From Terriglobales bacterium (GTDB taxonomy: Bacteria > Acidobacteriota > Terriglobia > Terriglobales > Acidobacteriaceae): DNA of 64,000 nt. The notes under the pieces are model-generated. The model was not told the origin of the DNA. It worked only from the letters and a program-made list of their open reading frames with translations, and ran no database searches. Below are positions 1,595-17,617 of this stretch, piece after piece. A program made the position numbers and the translations under genes. How positions within the stretch are numbered: position 1 is the first letter of the stretch; each line of letters begins with the position of its first letter. Location: the NCBI GenBank assembly GCA_041946765.1, contig JBHGAZ010000021.1, positions 4,279-68,278 on the forward strand, in the 5' to 3' direction.

Positions 1595-1684
1595 TGGCGG
1601 AGGGAGAGGGATTCGAACCCCCGGTACCCTTCCGGGTACAGCGGTTTTCAAGACCGCCCGTTTCGACCGCTCACGCATCCCTCC
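1595..1684 (-). tRNA. tRNA-Ser (anticodon UGA), class II, CCA encoded
   Basis: The minus-strand 90 nt GGAGGGATGCGTGAGCGGTCGAAACGGGCGGTCTTGAAAACCGCTGTACCCGGAAGGGTACCGGGGGTTCGAATCCCTCTCCCTCCGCCA folds by hand as follows. It has a 7-bp acceptor, a 3-bp D stem and an anticodon stem GCGGT/ACCGC with loop CTTGAAA. It also has a long variable arm GTACCC-GGAA-GGGTAC and a T arm GGGGG-TTCGAAT-CCCTC. Confidence 0.92.
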
Positions 1685-1753: not shown

Positions 1754-2896
1754 TCAATTCACCGTAGCTGGCTGGTTCAGCGCACGCTCCAAGGTGTCGC
1801 GAAGCGCCGCTACGGTCTTCTCCTGCCGTGCCTTGATGTAGATGTTCGTGGTCGTCGCCAGTTGTTCATGCCTCAAGATCGCCTGAATGATCTTGTCCTG
1901 CACTCCCAACTCGTACAGATTCGTCGCCAGTCCACGCCGGAACGCGTGCCAACCGTGCCACTCAAGACCTGCTGTCTTCAGCGTCGGCGCAATGTAGGTG
2001 CGAGCAAGCGAGTCGAGATTCAGACCGCGGTCATCGTCGTAACGGAATATACGTCCGGTACTCGGATTCCCCTGTAACAGCCGATGCTCTTCCAGGATTC
2101 CCGCGAGCTGAGCGATGACTGGTACGGGGGCCTTACTCCGTGGCGTCTTCGGCTCGTACACATGCTTTTCCCACACTGACCGGCTTACGTGCAGCGCACC
2201 ATCGTGATAGTCAGCCCAGTCGAGACCGCGCAGTTCACCTCGACGAAGCCCCGTAAATGCCGCAGTTGCTACCACCGCCCGCGCTGAGCCGCGCAGCACC
2301 ATTAGCATTTTCGTGATCTCGTCGAGTGAATAGGCATAGGTCTCCTCGCCTGTGCGCCCGCCGGGAATCGACACGCCATGCATCGGGTTTCCTGTATTCA
2401 GAAACCCGTACCGCCGCGCGTGCGTAAAAACCCCTGACAGAAATGCCTTGATGTGTCTCAGCGACATCTTTGTCAGCTTTGTCACCCGCGCCAGTGTGTG
2501 CATCAGAAGCTCGCCATCTGAGGGCTTGAAGTCCCGCAGCAGCTTCCTCCTAATGCGAGACTGCAAGTGGTTCTCATAGATGTGCCGATATCCTTTGTGC
2601 GTGGAGGCGCGTTTGTTCTCCTTCACGAACGGCAGATACTTGGTCTCGACAAACTGCCCGATGGTCATCGGGGGCTCATCTTTCGAGGCTCCAGCGTTTA
2701 CATCCGCCAGGAAATCCTGCGCCAACGGTTTCACCGAGCTTTCTGTTCTGTGCTGGTCATCCCGCGGTGCAAGTCTCCGAGCGATCTGCGCCCGCTTGAT
2801 GGAACCGTCAGCTTGCACGACATGATCGCGATAGCGTACGTACCACCAACCGTTTTCAGCGTAAATGTACCCGTGTTGGTAGCGAGTCCTTCTCAT
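1754..2896 (-). CDS. int: Tyrosine-type site-specific integrase
   Basis: 380 aa from the ATG at 2896 (MRRTRYQHGYIYAENGWWYVRYRD...). The C-terminal recombinase signature is ...LRRGELRGLDW...HGWHAFRRGLATNLYELGV...LRHEQLATTTNIYI (R...HxxR...Y). The track ORF extends to 3064, but that part overlaps xis. Confidence 0.88.
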   Translation of the reverse strand: MRRTRYQHGYIYAENGWWYVRYRDHVVQADGSIKRAQIARRLAPRDDQHRTESSVKPLAQDFLADVNAGASKDEPPMTIGQFVETKYLPFVKENKRASTHKGYRHIYENHLQSRIRRKLLRDFKPSDGELLMHTLARVTKLTKMSLRHIKAFLSGVFTHARRYGFLNTGNPMHGVSIPGGRTGEETYAYSLDEITKMLMVLRGSARAVVATAAFTGLRRGELRGLDWADYHDGALHVSRSVWEKHVYEPKTPRSKAPVPVIAQLAGILEEHRLLQGNPSTGRIFRYDDDRGLNLDSLARTYIAPTLKTAGLEWHGWHAFRRGLATNLYELGVQDKIIQAILRHEQLATTTNIYIKARQEKTVAALRDTLERALNQPATVN

Positions 2897-3123
2897 TTCT
2901 GCTCCTTTCTTGCGGACTCGCCCTCTACCGTTTTGGACCCTTGTCGCTGCCGTGCGAACCAGTCGTCTAGATCGGGGCAGCCAAACTCGAATCGAACATA
3001 GCGGCCAAGCCGGACGTGGGGAATGGGGTCCTTTGCACGGGAGCGGACATAATCGCGTATCCACGATGCAGGCACCTTCCAGCGCCGCGCCAACTCAACC
3101 GAATCAATGATCTCGCAAGCCAT
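2893..3123 (-). CDS. Excisionase / AlpA-like HTH DNA-binding protein
   Basis: 76 aa, MACEIIDSVELARRWKVPASWIRDYVRSRAKDPIPHVRLGRYVRFE..., the pattern of small excisionase-family HTH proteins. Its stop overlaps the int start (ATGA at 2893-2896). Confidence 0.7.
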   Translation of the reverse strand: MACEIIDSVELARRWKVPASWIRDYVRSRAKDPIPHVRLGRYVRFEFGCPDLDDWFARQRQGSKTVEGESARKEQK

Positions 3124-3217: not shown

Positions 3218-3706
3218 TCAAAGTGATTCCATCCGCGTCTTCAGTCCGGCGACAACCGCGCGAAGACTCAACGCGTAATAAACGCCGTTTCCCTCCGTGA
3301 TTTGGGGCGGCTGCCTTGAGAAATCGACCTTTGGGCCCTCTTTGCCACGCTTAAGCAGGACCCACCACCAGTGCGCCTTCCTGCCCTGCTCGTCGATGCC
3401 CAGGAGATCGCGATCTTCGACTTCGCTTAGCACGGTAACAATCAGCTCGGGCGTGAAGCCGTCTTTCCACATGCGTACGGCGACTCCTAACCGGTACACG
3501 TCAGTCTCACTGAACAGTCGTCGCGACCCACGCCGCCCCTCCGGACCGAGCCGTCCTGACGCCGCAAGCGGATAGCTCTTCACGTCTAAGAATTTTTGTA
3601 AGCGCCAAACGGGTATCTGAAGAATGTCGGCGACTTCTCCGGTACCAAATTGACGGACAGGCAAGGCCGCGGTTTCGAGCACGTCTTTGTATGTTCTGCG
3701 CTGCAT
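3218..3706 (-). CDS. Putative HTH DNA-binding regulator (MerR/excisionase-like fold), island-encoded
   Basis: 162 aa from the ATG at 3706: MQRRTYKDVLETAALPVRQFGTGEVADILQIPVWRLQKFL...RLFSETDVYRLGVAVRMWKDGF. It is divergent from the 3791 gene across an AT-rich spacer. Confidence 0.5.
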   Translation of the reverse strand: MQRRTYKDVLETAALPVRQFGTGEVADILQIPVWRLQKFLDVKSYPLAASGRLGPEGRRGSRRLFSETDVYRLGVAVRMWKDGFTPELIVTVLSEVEDRDLLGIDEQGRKAHWWWVLLKRGKEGPKVDFSRQPPQITEGNGVYYALSLRAVVAGLKTRMESL

Positions 3707-3734
3707 AACTCCCTGAGCATTACACATTATGATT

Positions 3735-3743
3735 TGATATAAT
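3735..3743 (+). promoter_or_regulatory. Extended -10 element TGATATAAT in the divergent island regulatory region
   Basis: tgatataat lies within the AT-rich stretch ttacacattatgatttgatataataataac, about 48 nt upstream of the ATG at 3791. Confidence 0.4.
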
Positions 3744-3790
3744 AATAACGGTTTGGGGGTTGCTCCCGCAACTCTGTGGGAAGGGAAAAT

Positions 3791-4018
3791 ATGACGGACA
3801 AAAAGGCCACTGAATCCATGCTGAGCCCACGAAGCGCGGCTCAACGGCTTGGCACAACGCTTGTCTGGATTTACCACGAACTTTGGGCTGGGCGGCTGCC
3901 GGGTGCGCGCAAGGTGGGCAGCACGTGGCGAATACCGACGGAAGTAATCGAAGCACGGCTAAAGGCGAAGAACGAGCACGCCACTCGGCGCGTTACTCGC
4001 CGTGAGCATGGAAGATGA
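3791..4018 (+). CDS. Excisionase-family HTH DNA-binding protein
   Basis: MTDKKATESMLSPRSAAQRLGTTLVWIYHELWAGRLPGARKVGSTWRIPTEVIEARL. GGGAAGGGA lies upstream of the ATG. The stop overlaps the next start (ATGA). Confidence 0.6.
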   Translation: MTDKKATESMLSPRSAAQRLGTTLVWIYHELWAGRLPGARKVGSTWRIPTEVIEARLKAKNEHATRRVTRREHGR

Positions 4019-4320
4019 CTTCGGCAACTCATGCGTTGAACACACCTACCATTTACGACGAGCACGAACTCGCTTTAGCCGCGTTCCTTTGGGCTAAAGG
4101 CCACCGTCTCCTGGAGGTAATCCCGGACCGCCAGCGCCGAGTGCACAAGGTTTTCCGATTCGCTGCGGACGAGCGGATCGGGAAGGACATTGAGGACTAC
4201 TGGAACGGCGCAACGGTGCACGCGCGGGACTTCGCGCGCTGTATCGCGGAACTGAAGTCGTTGGTTCATCGACCCCAGAGTGTAAGAAGTACTCCGCGGG
4301 CGATTGCACCGCGACTGTGA
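4015..4320 (+). CDS. Small hypothetical protein, translationally coupled between the HTH and rep-like genes
   Basis: 101 aa with ATGA/GTGA overlaps on both sides. I have a faint memory of DUF5659-type small phage/plasmid proteins (LAAFLWAKGHRLLEV...FRF), but this is not verifiable here. Confidence 0.45.
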   Translation: MTSATHALNTPTIYDEHELALAAFLWAKGHRLLEVIPDRQRRVHKVFRFAADERIGKDIEDYWNGATVHARDFARCIAELKSLVHRPQSVRSTPRAIAPRL

Positions 4321-5861
4321 GCTGCAATGACACGGCTCACATACGAGAACGAGACATGCATACGCAGGACATACAGAGCGGCGCTGTGACTGACAGCGCT
4401 GGAACCACAACGACTCAGCTTGAGAACGCGAAAACGCTAGTTACACAGACCACACCGCAACAACCCGAACATACGAAGAAGCAGAGTAACGCTCCACCGA
4501 GGACTTCCCCAACCGCCGTGGTCTCTGCTCCCGCGCGAGCCCTCAGCGAATCTCGAAACGGCAGTACTCACCGGAATGCATCGCTTGCTTTTCCTGAGAC
4601 TGGCTACGTAGGGGTTGCGGCGAAGCTAGCCGAGTTACTGAGTCAGCACTACGAGTCTCCCAAGGAGTTCATCTACATCGACATTCTGGCGCTAGTGGGT
4701 CTGGCAATGAGTGGACGTGTGAGGATGGATTTCGGCGACGTACTTACCCAACCGCGACTGTACATCATAAAGGTCGCCCTGTCGGGCTGGGGACGTAAAA
4801 GTTCTTCCACAAAGCTTGCGCGGAACTATATTTCCGAAGCGATGGAGCGGGCGAACGAGCTTAGGCTTAAGGCAGCGCAGCACCAGGATGCGCTCGCAAC
4901 GGCGGAGGACATCGAATACTTCCGCGTTGTGCCGGGTGTTGGCAGCGCAGAGGGACTCGTCAACGCATTTGCACTCTGCGGACGATGTGGAAAGCCAGAA
5001 CATCACGGCGGTGGCCATGCCTATACTCCTCAGCAGCGCATCGCGCTGAGCTACGACGAACTGCGGCGGTTTGAAAAGAAAGCAGGGATTCAGAACGCGG
5101 CGCTGCTACCAATGGTTCAAGAGCTGTACGACAGCAACGAGTATGCGAATTATACGAAGGAGTCTCAGCTAGAGGTTAAGAACGCGCATCTGGTATTTAT
5201 TTCCAACACGACTACTGAGAACTTTGAAAACCTCGTCGACGGATCAGAACTGGCGGATGGCGGCTTTCTCAACCGCAACTTCTTTATGACCGGCGAGCGG
5301 ACGAAGAGAATTTCACGTCCGAAAGCGCCGCCAAAGCCCGTGGTTCAGCCGATCATTGATGAGTTAGCAAGACAGCTCGCAAAGGTACCCACTGACGGCA
5401 CGGAGCTTGTCGTCGGGATGACGGCAGAAGCGGAGCGAATGTGGGATGCGTACTATGAGACTTTGGAAGAGACCGAGGAAAACGCGCGCTTGGACAGCAT
5501 CGGCATACGGCTCATGCCTTTGCTCGCGTTTACTTCCGGCAAAACCGAAGTGGACGCTGACCTGATGCAGTCGATCCTTGTGATCCTCGACTTCCAGGCC
5601 CGCGTACGTGAGATACTTCGTCCGAACCTAGGCGAAAATCCACAAGCGAAATTGGAGAACAAGATTCTGACCGTGTTGCGCAGACGCGGGGCGTTAACAG
5701 AGAGCGAGTTGAAGCAATATACGAACGCTCGACGCGTCGGGAGCGGGGTGTTCGAGAACGTCTTCCGGCACCTCCGCACGTCGAGACAGGTTATTGGCAA
5801 ACAGGTGCGAAGCGGGAACCGGACAGTGAACAAGTACGAGTTGAATCCCGAAAGCATTTAA
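4317..5861 (+). CDS. DUF3987-like replication (primase/helicase-associated) protein
   Basis: 514 aa. The segment FIYIDILALVGLAMSGRVRMDFGDVLTQPRLYIIKVALSGWGRKSSSTKLARNYI matches the recalled DUF3987 core with a degenerate P-loop. An alternative ATG start is at 4356. The iteron array follows immediately. Confidence 0.55.
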   Translation: MSCNDTAHIRERDMHTQDIQSGAVTDSAGTTTTQLENAKTLVTQTTPQQPEHTKKQSNAPPRTSPTAVVSAPARALSESRNGSTHRNASLAFPETGYVGVAAKLAELLSQHYESPKEFIYIDILALVGLAMSGRVRMDFGDVLTQPRLYIIKVALSGWGRKSSSTKLARNYISEAMERANELRLKAAQHQDALATAEDIEYFRVVPGVGSAEGLVNAFALCGRCGKPEHHGGGHAYTPQQRIALSYDELRRFEKKAGIQNAALLPMVQELYDSNEYANYTKESQLEVKNAHLVFISNTTTENFENLVDGSELADGGFLNRNFFMTGERTKRISRPKAPPKPVVQPIIDELARQLAKVPTDGTELVVGMTAEAERMWDAYYETLEETEENARLDSIGIRLMPLLAFTSGKTEVDADLMQSILVILDFQARVREILRPNLGENPQAKLENKILTVLRRRGALTESELKQYTNARRVGSGVFENVFRHLRTSRQVIGKQVRSGNRTVNKYELNPESI

Positions 5862-5866
5862 GACCC

Positions 5867-6133
5867 GTAGTCACGTAGTCAGTGCCGTAGTCGCGCCTTG
5901 ACTACGGTGCAAGTGCATGAAAAAGCAAAACATAAGAGCAACTGTAGTCATGTAGTCAGCCTCCGCATAACTGCGAGGGCGGAAGGCTGATGGTCTCGTC
6001 CGCGCGGCACAGGCCGAAGAAAATCCGGGGCTCAAGGACAATATGACTACATGACTACGCTTTTAGCTAAGCGCCTCTGTTGCATGTGGTTATAGCGTAG
6101 TCACGCTCTGACTACATTTGACTACGTGACTAC
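5867..6133. repeat. Iteron array: 12 copies of GTAGTC(A)/(T)GACTAC, candidate replication origin
   Basis: Forward copies are at 5867, 5875, 5887, 5944, 5952 and 6097. Inverted copies are at 5900, 6045, 6053, 6110, 6120 and 6128. Four pairs have 8-bp spacing. About 0.13 hexamer hits are expected by chance in 267 bp. Confidence 0.8.
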
Positions 6134-6830
6134 GGATTCCCGATCCACCCGCGGTACAAGACCGACCGTGGTCTTGCGTGGTCTTGTTGGTCTTGCTGGT
6201 CCGGCTGTCACGTGCTGCGCAACCGTCCGCGCGCGAGGCTGGCGCAGGACGCATCCTCTGGTACCCGCGTAACGTCTCTCATATGCGATCCGTTTGTATG
6301 TATCGCAGCACGACCTGTCCCCTCCGCCCGCACACAAAAACGGGGCGCGAGAGCGCGGCGGGGACGTTCTCCCGCCTCAGCGAAGCGGTGCATTTCGCGA
6401 CGCTGCAGATGGCGAAGTCAAAGAGAAATTGGCGGCGTCTGTGCTGAATCCGCGGGCAGAGAAGCTCCATGAAGTGGGACCAAGTCGCTTTGCGCTGCGT
6501 GCCCCACGGGGTCACGAGCAGCCCGCCCCGAAGCATGGGATCGGTGGGGGGCAGAACGGTGGGCGTAAAGGAGAAAAGGCGTACGAGGAGGTTGAATCGA
6601 CGGGAAGAAAAGCTCGATTAAGGAGACAGTCCGCATGGGTGCGCTCGCGCCCGCGGCGCTACAAAAGTATGCTCAAAAAGCGACCCCCGGTCGGCCAGGA
6701 GGCCCCAGACGCCCAGGACGCCCGACGCCACAGTGCGGTGGCGCATGTTGGGACGTTTCTTCAGCCCGACTACCTCCCGACGAGGTGCCGCCGTGGGATA
6801 TACGATGATGGCAGAAGACGGCAGCTATGA

Positions 6831-13081: not shown

Positions 13082-13978
13082 TTGTTGCTTGCGGGCCAGT
13101 GTCGTGAGAGTTTAGGGTCACAAGGCAGGCTGCGACGACACTATCTGTGTGGCGGTGTTAAAGGACGCACAGTCATTGACAACGTGTCCATGCATATCGG
13201 CACGCCCGTTTTGGTTACGCTGGACATCAGGAATTTCTTTCCAACAATCACGCCTACTGCGGTTTATCGCGTCTGGTCGGAAATTTTGGGGTGCTCCCCT
13301 TCTGTTTCTAGTGTGCTGACACGGCTAACCACATTCAAGCGGCACTTGCCACAGGGATCGGCAACCAGCACCTTGCTCGCAAATTTAGTGCTCTACTCGG
13401 TTGATGCTCCTATACGTGAGGCGTGCCGTGCTAACGGCGTTCAATATTCCACATGGGTTGATGACATCGCGTTGTCGGGGAAACGCGCGCCAGAAATTAT
13501 CCAGACGGCTGTAGATGCATTACGAAAAGCAGGGTTCAGCGTTCCTCACCGCAAGCTGAAGGTCATGGGCACAGGCGGCAGAATGATCCTCAATAAGGTT
13601 CTCCTCGGGCGATTTCCAGGGGTTGTTCGCGAGCGCGTGGCTCAACTGAGGTCAGGGATTCACAAGCTGCGGACTGGTGCAGTTCCGGGCTGTGAGCTGG
13701 GCAGGTACTGTCTAAGCCTGCAAGGGGCCATTCACCACTTATCGTCAATAGTGCCTCGACGCGCTCAACACCTCCAGGCGGAATACGACGAAGTGTGCGA
13801 ATCGGTTTTCGCGACGGCTCGCAGATTCGCTGCCGCGTCGAGGTACCTCTCAACCGTTTTAATTTCTTGGCTCCCAGCAATGTGTTTGCTAACCTGTGCG
13901 CACTTTCAGAGTTCAACGTCGGAGATGCCGGAATGCCGCCTGACGCTGGCGTGCGTGCATATGGGACCGCGCCGCTGA
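13082..13978 (+). pseudogene. Retron-type reverse transcriptase lacking the N-terminal ~90 aa (RT motifs 1-2)
   Basis: GGVKGRTVIDNVSMHIG (NAxxH-like), LDIRNFFPTIT, LPQGSATSTLLANLVL, YSTWVDDIALSG (YxDD box), KLKVMG. It is colinear with my recollection of retron Ec86 RT from its NAxxH region onward. None of the three forward frames in 12884-13081 encodes the IPKK..G..R fingers region. The tail after ...AEYDEV looks non-genuine. Confidence 0.6.
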
Positions 13979-16263
13979 GTGAATCCGATACGCGCTCGAA
14001 GCTGATAGACCCCGCGATCCATGCGCGCGGATGGACGGAGGATTTGATCCGCCGCGAAGAGACGGCAGGCGCGATCCAGATGATCGGCGGCAAGCCGCGC
14101 CGTCAGGCCAAGGGCCGCCTTGATTACACGCTGCGCATCAAGATCAATCCCGACACGCAGCCAGTTGCCGTGGCGCTGATCGAGGCAAAAGCAGCGCACC
14201 TCCCACCGAATCACGGTCTGGAGCAGGCGAAGGCGTATGCCGCCTGCAAGCGGCTGAACGTGCCGTTCGTGTTCTCCAGCAACGGCCATCAATTCCTTGA
14301 GTTTGACCGCCTTACCGGGCTGACCTCCGCCCCGCGCTTCATGGCGGAGTTTCCGACGCCCGCTGACCTCCGCGCGCGATACGAGCAGCACATTGGCTTC
14401 AGCCTCAATGATCCTGCCGCCAAGCCGATGCTCACGCGCTACTACGGAGGCGAGGCGACGCGGCGCTATTACCAGGACGCCGCCATCCGTGCGGTGCTGG
14501 AGAAGATCGCGCGGTGCGAGCAGACGGGCGAACCGAAACGCGCCCTGCTGTCGCTGGCCACGGGTTCGGGCAAGACGTTTATCGCGGTCAACCTGCTGCG
14601 CCGCATTGCTGACGCGGGCCGGCTTCGCCGCGCGCTGTTCGTCTGTGACCGCGATGAGCTGCGAACTCAAGCTGCCGCGGCCTTCCAGAATCTCTTCGGC
14701 GCAGATGCGGCAACAGTGTCCAGCGGCAAGCCGCAGAAGAACGCTCGAATCCTGATTGCGACCTACCAGACGCTCGACGTGGACAACGAGGAGGCGACCG
14801 CCAATTTTCTCACGGAGAATTACCCGGAGGACTACTTCTCCCACATCGTCATTGACGAGTGCCATCGCAGCGCGTGGGGCAAATGGTCGCAAGTGTTGAC
14901 GCGCAATCCGAAGGCGGTGCAGATCGGGCTTACCGCTACACCGCGCAAGCTACACGTCTCAGAGCAGACGCGAGAAGCGCAGGCGGACGAGCAGATCAAC
15001 GCCGACAACATCCGGCACTTTGGTGAGCCGGTTTACGAGTATGACGTGGCGCAAGGGATTGAGGACGGCTATCTCGCGCTGTGTGAAATCCTCAAGGGCC
15101 GCGTAAATCTGGATCAAACCGGAATCACGATTGAGGATGTGCTGGCACGCAATCCGAAGGACGCCAACACCGGCCAGCCCGTCACCCGCGCGCAGCTCAA
15201 GCAGCTATACGAAAAAACAACCTTCGAGGACCGCATCCTGCTCCCGGATCGCGTGCTGGCGATGTGCCAGGATTTATTCGCATACCTGCTGCAAAGCGGC
15301 AGGCCGGAGCAGAAAACGATTATCTTCTGCGCCCGTGATCGCCATGCCGATGATGTGGCAGCCACGATGAACAATCTTTATGCCGAATGGTGCGCCCGCA
15401 ATGGACGCCCGCGCCAGGAGCCTTACGCTTTCAAATGCACGGCAGCTTCCGGCGGAGGCGAACACCTCGCTGATCTGGGGGGCGCGTCACGCTCCCACTT
15501 CATCGCCACGACCGTTGATCTGCTGACAACCGGCGTAGACGTGCCATGCGTGCGGAACATCGTGTTCTTCAAGTACGTGCGCTCGCCAATCGCGTTTTAC
15601 CAGATGATTGGTCGCGGCACTCGCCTTGACCCGCCCACCGGCAAGCTGATGTTCCGCGTGTACGACTACACGGACGCGACACGGTTGTTCGGCGAAGAGT
15701 TCATCACGAAGGTCGCAGGGCCGCGTAAACCGAAAGATGATGATGTGCCGGAACCGCCTCCGCCCCCGCCGGAACCGCAAATTATTGTCGAAGGCTTCGA
15801 GGTCCAGGTTACGCCCGCGGGCCGCTATATCGTCACGGAAGTGGATGGGAAGGCGATGCCGGTCACGGTCGAGGAGTACAAGCAGCGGCTCGCGCGGCGG
15901 CTGGTCGCTGAGGCCGCAAGCCTGGACGACTTCCGTGCGCGCTGGATTCATCCGGCAATGCGCCGCGAGCTGATGGGTCGCTTGCCCGATGCGGGTCGCT
16001 CCCCGCTGGTGCTGCGCGAGCTGGAGCAGATGAACGATTACGACCTCTACGACGTGCTGGCCGATATTGGTTATGGCGCTGCGCCGCGCACCCGCATGGA
16101 ACGCGCTGAGGCGTTCACTACTACATCGGAAGAGCCGAACGTCTCGCCAAACGGATTTTCGATCACGCCAACCACACCGCTGACCGGTACTACAATTTCT
16201 GGAATCTTTTTTCAGCATTCGTGGTCAGCAAGAAGTACGTTCCAGAGATCGAAAGAGTCCTAA
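13933..16263 (+). CDS. Orphan HsdR-like protein (PD-(D/E)xK nuclease N-domain + SF2 helicase + EcoEI_R_C-like tail)
   Basis: 776 aa from the ATG at 13933 (GGAGA upstream). Motifs: SESDTRSKLIDPAIHARGW, D..IEAK nuclease motif, SLATGSGKTF (I), VIDECHRS (II), GLTATP (III), TTGVDVPCVRNIVFF (V), QMIGRGTRL (VI), then ...DLYDVLADIGYGAAPRTRMERAEAF. No hsdM or hsdS is present in the window. Confidence 0.8.
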   Translation: MPPDAGVRAYGTAPLSESDTRSKLIDPAIHARGWTEDLIRREETAGAIQMIGGKPRRQAKGRLDYTLRIKINPDTQPVAVALIEAKAAHLPPNHGLEQAKAYAACKRLNVPFVFSSNGHQFLEFDRLTGLTSAPRFMAEFPTPADLRARYEQHIGFSLNDPAAKPMLTRYYGGEATRRYYQDAAIRAVLEKIARCEQTGEPKRALLSLATGSGKTFIAVNLLRRIADAGRLRRALFVCDRDELRTQAAAAFQNLFGADAATVSSGKPQKNARILIATYQTLDVDNEEATANFLTENYPEDYFSHIVIDECHRSAWGKWSQVLTRNPKAVQIGLTATPRKLHVSEQTREAQADEQINADNIRHFGEPVYEYDVAQGIEDGYLALCEILKGRVNLDQTGITIEDVLARNPKDANTGQPVTRAQLKQLYEKTTFEDRILLPDRVLAMCQDLFAYLLQSGRPEQKTIIFCARDRHADDVAATMNNLYAEWCARNGRPRQEPYAFKCTAASGGGEHLADLGGASRSHFIATTVDLLTTGVDVPCVRNIVFFKYVRSPIAFYQMIGRGTRLDPPTGKLMFRVYDYTDATRLFGEEFITKVAGPRKPKDDDVPEPPPPPPEPQIIVEGFEVQVTPAGRYIVTEVDGKAMPVTVEEYKQRLARRLVAEAASLDDFRARWIHPAMRRELMGRLPDAGRSPLVLRELEQMNDYDLYDVLADIGYGAAPRTRMERAEAFTTTSEEPNVSPNGFSITPTTPLTGTTISGIFFQHSWSARSTFQRSKES

Positions 16264-17572: not shown

Positions 17573-17617
17573 GTTTTCAAGACCGCCCGTTTCGACCGCT
17601 CACGCATCCCTCCGCGG
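17573..17617. repeat. attR-type direct repeat: orphan 5' half of tRNA-Ser(UGA)
   Basis: Identical to 1644-1688. Read on the minus strand, the sequence after nt 41 is AAAGG... instead of CGCTG, so no anticodon stem or 3' half can form. Confidence 0.85.

Follow-up and report, generated by a model that had tools for sequence, protein, structure and literature searches.

A mirror-symmetric GTAGTCA array beside a DUF3987 gene as the probable replication origin of a tRNA-Ser island

A tRNA-Ser island that encodes a DUF3987 protein

The window, which is the whole 64-kb stretch of DNA analysed here, contains a 15.9-kb island in tRNA-Ser that is bounded by perfect 45-bp direct repeats and carries an integrase. 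The left repeat (1644–1688) consists of the 5′ half of tRNA-Ser(UGA) (1595–1684, minus strand) plus 4 nt, and its perfect copy at 17573–17617 marks the other boundary. Such repeats usually match the 3′ end of a tRNA gene; here it is the 5′ half that is duplicated, and the intact tRNA-Ser gene therefore owes its 5′ part to the island. From the left boundary inwards, we identified a tyrosine integrase (1754–3064, minus strand; Pfam Phage_integrase), a gene for a MerR-like protein (3218–3877, minus strand), a weak DUF5659-like open reading frame (ORF; 4015–4320, plus strand) and a DUF3987 gene of 514 codons (4317–5861, plus strand; Pfam DUF3987). Phage satellites (PICI, P4-like or PICMI) have a core of int, an alpA/xis-type regulator and pri-rep, together with functions for helper-dependent induction and packaging. 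The integrase, the MerR-like protein and the DUF3987 gene of the island may correspond to this core, and no interference gene of such satellites was recognised in it. Searches against Pfam and PHROG recognised no primase, terminase, capsid, relaxase or partition gene in the island. Reverse-transcriptase and HsdR-like genes lie at its far end (13082–16263).

The start of the DUF3987 ORF overlaps the stop of the upstream ORF by GTGA. Its stop codon occupies 5859–5861, and a repeat array begins 6 nt past this stop, with its first site at 5867. We found no convincing ORF in the stretch of about 430–970 bp that holds and follows the array ahead of the next genes. The annotated gene call is only 378 amino acids long, starts at residue 137 and loses about 45 conserved residues; the GTGA overlap favours the long form of the ORF. 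The first ~88 codons of this long form (4317–4580) are of low complexity and are modelled as disordered.

The product of 4317–5861 matched Pfam DUF3987 (E = 2.3e-12) and PHROG helicase/primase families. In an alignment of the window protein with six relatives, the conserved core started at about residue 90, and both the Walker A motif GWGRKSS (K161, S162) and the Walker B motif YDE (D247, E248) were invariant. An AlphaFold2 (AF2) model calculated from a shallow alignment of seven sequences (mean pLDDT 72, pTM 0.69) revealed an alpha/beta (AAA+) ATPase core, disorder over residues 1–88 and, at the C terminus, a canonical winged helix (residues ~440–510, nt ~5634–5846) made up of helices 442–457, 462–468 and 476–488 and a beta-hairpin at 492–509. 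The best matches to this model in a Foldseek search of the PDB were MCM2-7 subunits, ORC and ComM, and the best matches among viral models were phage DNA helicases, DUF3987 proteins and primase-helicases. We predict an MCM-like AAA+ ATPase that ends in a winged helix. Judged from the model, its likeness to the Rep protein of the Staphylococcus aureus pathogenicity islands (SaPIs) would be one of fold class only, and a profile search of PDB chains with the DUF3987 protein did not find SaPI Rep. An earlier study predicted that DUF3987 acts as a replicative helicase in mobile elements (PMC5862659). For a PriCT-DUF3987 protein assigned to superfamily 6, oligomerisation and ATP-dependent helicase activity have been shown (PMC11724360). 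DUF3987 also serves as a marker gene in the PICMI model (PMC10803314).

Twelve sites form a dyad with an off-centre A-rich tract

The array (5867–6133) contains 12 exact copies of GTAGTC, six per strand, located at 5867, 5875, 5887, 5944, 5952 and 6097 on the plus strand and at 5900, 6045, 6053, 6110, 6120 and 6128 on the minus strand. An earlier note on this DNA had called this number of hexamers in 267 bp far above chance, and our counts agree: the rate outside the array predicts 0.09 copies per 267 bp, or about 0.1 (Poisson P ~7e-22). The entire window holds 34 copies versus 11.5 expected from shuffles. Eleven of the 12 sites extend to GTAGTCA, and the preceding base is mostly C or T.

The four tight pairs that had been noted are present as tandem pairs with a pitch of 8 bp, and we also observed two convergent pairs with a pitch of 13 bp (5887+/5900− and 6097+/6110−). 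The left, gene-proximal arm (5867–5957) comprises sites 5867+, 5875+, 5887+, 5900−, 5944+ and 5952+, and is mirrored by the right arm (6044–6133) with sites 6045−, 6053−, 6097+, 6110−, 6120− and 6128−. Every site has a left–right mirror partner, so that the proposed dyad, with mostly forward copies on the left and mostly inverted copies on the right of a core of about 85 bp, resolves into six pairs with a common centre at 6000–6001 and an 85-bp spacer. Because the sites mirror each other, the array contains two long perfect inverted repeats of 17 nt (5865–5881/6119–6135) and 15 nt (5944–5958/6044–6058). The genome (3.8 Mb) has four copies of GTAGTCANGTAGTCA, the word formed by the tandem pairs, and every copy falls within the array.

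Within the left arm, the outer sites are separated from the inner ones by an A-rich tract of low stability (5911–5946, plus strand), the GC content of which (28–32%) is among the lowest 0.2–0.3% of the window. We regard this tract as the candidate unwinding element. By contrast, the central spacer (5959–6043), which occupies 85 bp at the dyad centre, is 62% GC versus a background of 57%. The A-rich stretch reported earlier is thus real, but it sits inside the left arm, and AT-richness is lacking at the core. A small GC-rich hairpin (5957–5990; CAGCCTCCGC ... GCGGAAGGCTG), located where the left arm meets the central spacer, is without a counterpart in related arrays.

No DnaA box was found in the array region within one mismatch, and a scan of the array for promoters and terminators found nothing. 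Rfam covariance models returned no match to a structured RNA at E ≤ 1 in 5500–6700. Arm-type integrase sites were rejected as the identity of the array, because attL is 4.2 kb away.

A second set of short repeats (6156–6196, plus strand) starts 23 bp to the right of the array and consists of ACAAGACC followed by three copies of TGGTCTTG, with pitches of 10 and 9 bp. TGGTCTTG is found only twice elsewhere in the 64-kb window, and the second set is absent from the related loci that were compared. These repeats could be extra sites for the initiator or a regulator, and whether they form part of an origin is uncertain.

The array follows the DUF3987 gene in related loci

The DUF3987 clade of the window protein is rare. 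We found no homologue of the helicase among 100 related genomes, and a search of the genome contig collection with back-translated peptides found no related loci. Relatives came from seven matches in a large protein collection, with L018 and L037 added from the pattern scan described below; most of the related contigs are short. The placement claimed in the earlier note, directly after the rep-like gene, was seen again in L006, L009, L010, L037, L049 and L008. GTAGTCA arrays were present in L006/L007/L018, L009, L010 and L037 (41–45% protein identity), where they start at the helicase stop codon or no more than a few bases from it.

The relatives with GTAGTCA arrays also shared the layout of the window array. 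It begins with outer sites, two or three forward and one inverted, and a purine/AT-rich tract; a forward tandem pair (8-bp pitch) and an inverted tandem pair follow, separated by a spacer of 55–85 bp, and a mirrored outer set ends the array. The relatives' arrays have four to six sites per arm, and in L006, L009 and L037 the off-centre purine/AT-rich tract is at the matching place. In most related arrays the centre is AT-rich, unlike the 62% GC of the window array. When the arrays were aligned, 37 of the 39 invariant columns were iteron bases and the other two belonged to the A-rich tract, and the spacers could not be aligned. Such iteron-only conservation is as expected from selection on protein-binding sites and their geometry.

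In sister lineages and more distant relatives, the word changed and the arrangement did not. L049 (protein P0002) has 12 copies of GTCGTCA and L008 (P0005) has GCCGTCA, both with position and layout kept. Among viral contigs that encode more diverged proteins, the layout is kept with ATAGTCA in L047 (~25% identical), GTAGCCA in L046 (~25%) and GCCGCCA in L048 (~27%). L050 (P0007) apparently has GTCACCA, in an array truncated where the contig stops. Maximum-likelihood analysis grouped the five proteins linked to GTAGTCA in one clade (support 91/92) and placed the GTCGTCA- and GCCGTCA-linked proteins outside it. The iteron word tracks the DUF3987 protein tree. The alignment gave no convincing pattern of winged-helix residues that determine the specificity for the iteron word, and the window protein and P0005 have a YTNARRVG/FTNARRVG motif in common, yet differ in their iteron words.

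Small ORFs precede the helicase gene, but they show no relationship from one locus to the next, and the genes downstream of the array differ at every locus, so that the array has the helicase gene as its sole constant partner. Convergent genes enclose the array in L009 and L008, which does not fit a promoter-operator role.

GTAGTCA arrays beside other replication genes

We also scanned contig collections with a pattern that described the inner module only, namely GTAGTCANGTAGTCA, a gap of 55–85 nt and then its inverse. The scan yielded three loci in the viral contig collection and 27 loci in the metagenome contig collection. Although the pattern required only the inner pairs, about 22 of the 27 metagenome loci had the full modular layout. 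Every neighbour of the viral and metagenome arrays that could be named was a replication gene, including members of the DUF3987 clade (L018 and L037). In L016, L020 and L032, the neighbour encodes a VapE-like protein with a DUF3854 domain, and the array (L016 5934–6103) starts where the gene ends. In L019 and L025, it encodes an 817-amino acid Toprim-D5_N-DUF5906-Pox_D5 protein, the last codons of which overlap the array (L019 9128–9392). In L041, the gene encodes a PriCT_2 primase and the array (1807–2080) lies 160 bp upstream. Most of these viral and metagenome arrays have an AT-rich central spacer, as in L019 (12% GC versus 50%). In the viral contig collection, GTAGTCA gave its three loci and four control words (GTCGTCA and words of equal composition) gave no match each, which weakly hints that GTAGTCA is over-represented and is more than one arbitrary word among many.

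The bases flanking the word are family-specific, with GGTAGTCAGG in L016, TGTAGTCACC in the GC-rich L014 group and CGTAGTCA in the DUF3987 clade. A family of 813-amino acid ORFs next to GC-rich arrays (L014 type) had no Pfam, PHROG or PDB match and may not represent a real gene. We further observed that many contigs end within about 10–140 bp of an array (L014 at its start, L015 at its end, and L038, L042, L034, L021, L028, L030, L033 and L039). These ends could be genuine molecule ends or could have arisen where assembly broke at a shared module; a circularity check of the viral contig L015 revealed no terminal overlap and no terminal inverted repeat.

The genome contig collection gave three matches of a different kind, each a plain 8-bp tandem run followed by inverted copies and located between housekeeping genes. 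These were from a Hydrogenophilaceae metagenome-assembled genome (L011; flanked by a histidine kinase and a ParA-like gene), Bacteroides salyersiae (flanked by an FGGY kinase and transketolase) and a Chloroflexota metagenome-assembled genome (adjoining sufB). The plain tandem runs are without a rep gene, outer site sets or the modular layout. The case that the earlier note had named as refuting an origin, a GTAGTCA array away from rep genes, does occur, but in the form of plain tandem runs that lack the modular layout, and it is therefore not counted against the window array. Plain runs of GTAGTCAN, with up to ten copies, were seen at L011 2879–3030, L012 756–895 and L013 7530–7665 and also in L027, L031 and L036.

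It is possible, but in our estimate rather doubtful, that the modular GTAGTCA arrays represent one widespread origin type that is used by at least four unrelated initiator families (DUF3987/MCM-like, VapE-like, P4-alpha/D5-like and PriCT_2). The elements that carry them differ greatly in G+C content. We detected no shared domain between the DUF3987 and the VapE-like or P4-alpha-like proteins with N-terminal, middle and C-terminal profiles (hmmsearch --max), and neither all-against-all blastp nor hhalign of the C termini revealed similarity between the DUF3987 clade and the other array-linked proteins. A literature search that linked the word GTAGTCA with ‘iteron’ returned no relevant paper. 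If there were one shared origin type, a portable reader domain, too diverged for detection by sequence, would have been swapped between helicase cores together with the origin; alternatively, a separate conserved protein would read the sites. In that case, the chromosomal (GTAGTCAN)n runs of Bacteroides, Hydrogenophilaceae and Chloroflexota might be remnants of this recognition system or decoys for it.

Comparison with known replication origins

The design of the array is already known from SaPI/PICI origins and is functionally like the origins of P4 and of polyomaviruses and papillomaviruses. In PMC9371898 (Qiao et al. 2022, citing Ubeda et al. 2007, 2012), the SaPI ori is described as 6–12 short iterons (5–7 nt) immediately downstream of rep, split equally by an AT-rich region, with two or more per side in opposite directions. 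The same source describes SaPI Rep as an MCM-like self-loading helicase, the C-terminal winged helix of which reads the iterons without ATP. The likeness that had been drawn to SaPI/PICI layouts holds for iteron number, placement and opposed sides, but not for the AT-rich centre. The 12 GTAGTC(A) sites of the window fall in the SaPI range of 6–12 and lie immediately 3′ of a rep-like DUF3987 ORF, and the pairs 5944+/5952+ and 5867+/5875+ face 6045−/6053− and 6120−/6128−, respectively. Further points of likeness are the candidate initiator of the window, predicted to be MCM-like AAA+ with a C-terminal winged helix, iteron words that differ between related elements, the absence of DnaA boxes and the setting in an integrase-bearing chromosomal island. 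By contrast, the window array has a GC-rich centre and an off-centre A-rich tract where the SaPI centre is AT-rich, and its sites are more elaborate, with outer 3+1 sets in addition to inner tandem pairs. The window helicase also belongs to the DUF3987 family and, in the profile search of PDB chains, did not match SaPI Rep by sequence; the island, which comes from an unrelated environmental host, has no recognisable primase, packaging or helper-interference genes.

Initiators that read short words are also found outside SaPIs. The P4 alpha protein is a primase-helicase with a C-terminal winged helix that binds short (8-bp) iterons in direct and inverted orientation, and a P4-alpha-like gene in L019 has a GTAGTCA array at its 3′ end. 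P4 differs in that ori and crr are two separate regions and in that its SF3 helicase is joined to a primase, whereas the window has one compact dyad array and an SF6/MCM-like ATPase without a primase domain. Polyomavirus and papillomavirus origins (large T GAGGC pentamers and E1 sites, respectively) combine mirrored short words, head-to-head hexamers and an adjacent tract that melts easily. By analogy, the window initiator would likewise be a replicative helicase acting on mirror-arranged words; the viral proteins are SF3 helicases with another DNA-binding domain and a eukaryotic host, and no homology is claimed. Iteron plasmids such as pPS10, RK2, pSC101 and P1 have direct iterons of 17–22 bp, non-helicase initiators of the WH1-WH2 RepA type and DnaA boxes. 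They resemble the window in having repeated initiator words by an AT-rich unwinding element near the rep gene, but the window words are 7–8 bp long and mirrored, with no DnaA box and with an adjacent AAA+ ATPase in place of an initiator of the RepA/TrfA/pi kind.

AgaPH, a PriCT-DUF3987 protein, shares its ATPase family with the window protein, and both are encoded in integrase-bearing, tRNA-linked elements. It is an oligomeric ATP-dependent helicase with a small C-terminal domain, from an integrase-bearing tRNA-linked pAgo element (PMC11724360). AgaPH has an N-terminal PriCT domain and a partner PrimPol, whereas the window protein lacks PriCT and has no primase gene beside it. A term search of PMC11724360 revealed no mention of a defined origin, and we found no experimentally defined origin for DUF3987 helicases in the literature.

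Proposed mechanism and alternative explanations

We consider it very probable that the array at 5867–6133 is the vegetative replication origin of the 15.9-kb tRNA-Ser island and that it is read by the DUF3987 protein, because relatives keep the position and layout of the array and the word tracks the protein. The earlier proposal of a candidate island origin gains support from the conserved position, word and layout, from the agreement between word and protein tree, from the predicted MCM-like winged-helix fold and from the occurrence of this array type beside other primase and helicase families. We infer that binding, melting, double-hexamer loading and replication would take place at the array as follows. 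After excision, the island would use 5867–6133 as its origin. The DUF3987 protein, encoded immediately upstream, would bind the YGTAGTCA sites through its C-terminal winged helix. Given the two mirrored arms with six sites each, the protein would take opposite orientations on them and would probably form a pair of opposed hexamers. The agreement of six sites per arm with one hexamer is no more than suggestive, because the arms of related arrays have four to six sites. The duplex would melt at the A-rich tract (5911–5946), at the centre or at both, and the helicase would load itself and unwind in both directions with no need for DnaA. Synthesis would fall to the primase and polymerase of the host or a helper, because no primase gene is recognisable in the island.

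One alternative is that the array is a packaging site of the pac or cos type, in which a small-terminase-like protein of the island or a helper phage would bind repeats that flank a cleavage site. Two-sided repeat sets around a central site are known from pac regions such as SPP1 pacL/pacR. The phage contigs L016 and L019 place the array between primase-helicase and terminase genes: a gp3-like packaging gene follows the L019 array at a distance of 124 bp, and a large terminase gene follows the L016 array at about 1.4 kb. Several metagenome and viral contigs also end at such arrays. This explanation keeps some weight because the L016 and L019 arrays adjoin terminase genes and many contigs end near arrays, but we judge it unlikely. 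In the DUF3987 clade, the array has no conserved neighbour other than the helicase gene, whose phylogeny is reflected in the word, and what lies downstream varies from locus to locus. Our searches of the island revealed nothing that resembles a terminase gene. The contig ends, moreover, fall outside the arrays and not at their centres. The array might instead be a set of operators through which an island-encoded transcription factor, such as the MerR-like or the DUF5659-like protein, controls downstream genes or autoregulates rep. Repeated short inverted words are typical of operators, and the array lies within the stretch of about 430–970 bp that has no convincing ORF before the next genes. 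However, the array contains no promoter-like site that we could find, lies between convergent genes in L009 and L008, and, with 12 sites over 267 bp and an internal A-rich tract, far exceeds the needs of an operator. Together with the lack of conservation of candidate regulators among loci that have the word in common, this makes a regulatory array highly improbable.

The chance that the array is a partition (centromere-like) or architectural maintenance site bound by a ParB- or ParR-like adaptor seems to us extremely small. Plasmid centromeres are arrays of short direct and inverted repeats, and the simple GTAGTCA tandem run in L011 adjoins a ParA-like gene. That run is purely tandem and sits in a housekeeping context, however, and neither the island nor the related DUF3987 loci yielded a gene of the ParA, ParB or ParM type. 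We give equally little credence to a non-functional repeat expansion or a generic hairpin-forming intergenic repeat of the (GTAGTCAN)n kind. Plain GTAGTCA tandem runs do exist between housekeeping genes in Hydrogenophilaceae, Bacteroides and Chloroflexota, but the window array is modular, is present once in the genome and has a layout that is kept across loci with fully diverged spacers.

With the array taken as the origin of the island, its distinctive features would be the near-perfect twelve-site dyad, the off-centre A-rich tract combined with a GC-rich centre, the natural word variants in close relatives and a word common to unrelated initiator families. Prophages, satellites and integrative islands often encode DUF3987 proteins, which have only recently been shown to be helicases. 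The GTAGTCA, GTCGTCA and GCCGTCA loci (42–47% protein identity) are natural specificity variants and make a clean test set, suited to questions of own-origin recognition by a bacterial MCM-like helicase, of double-hexamer self-loading and of the residues that read the word. The island is probably able to replicate after excision, which matters for the spread of islands that carry defence genes. Variable defence-type cargo lies beside the replication module: the reverse-transcriptase and HsdR-like genes in the window (13082–16263), a TIR-domain gene in L006/L007 (L006 4005–4919), and a HigB toxin and an HD-domain gene in L008 (3556–3861 and 7559–8914).
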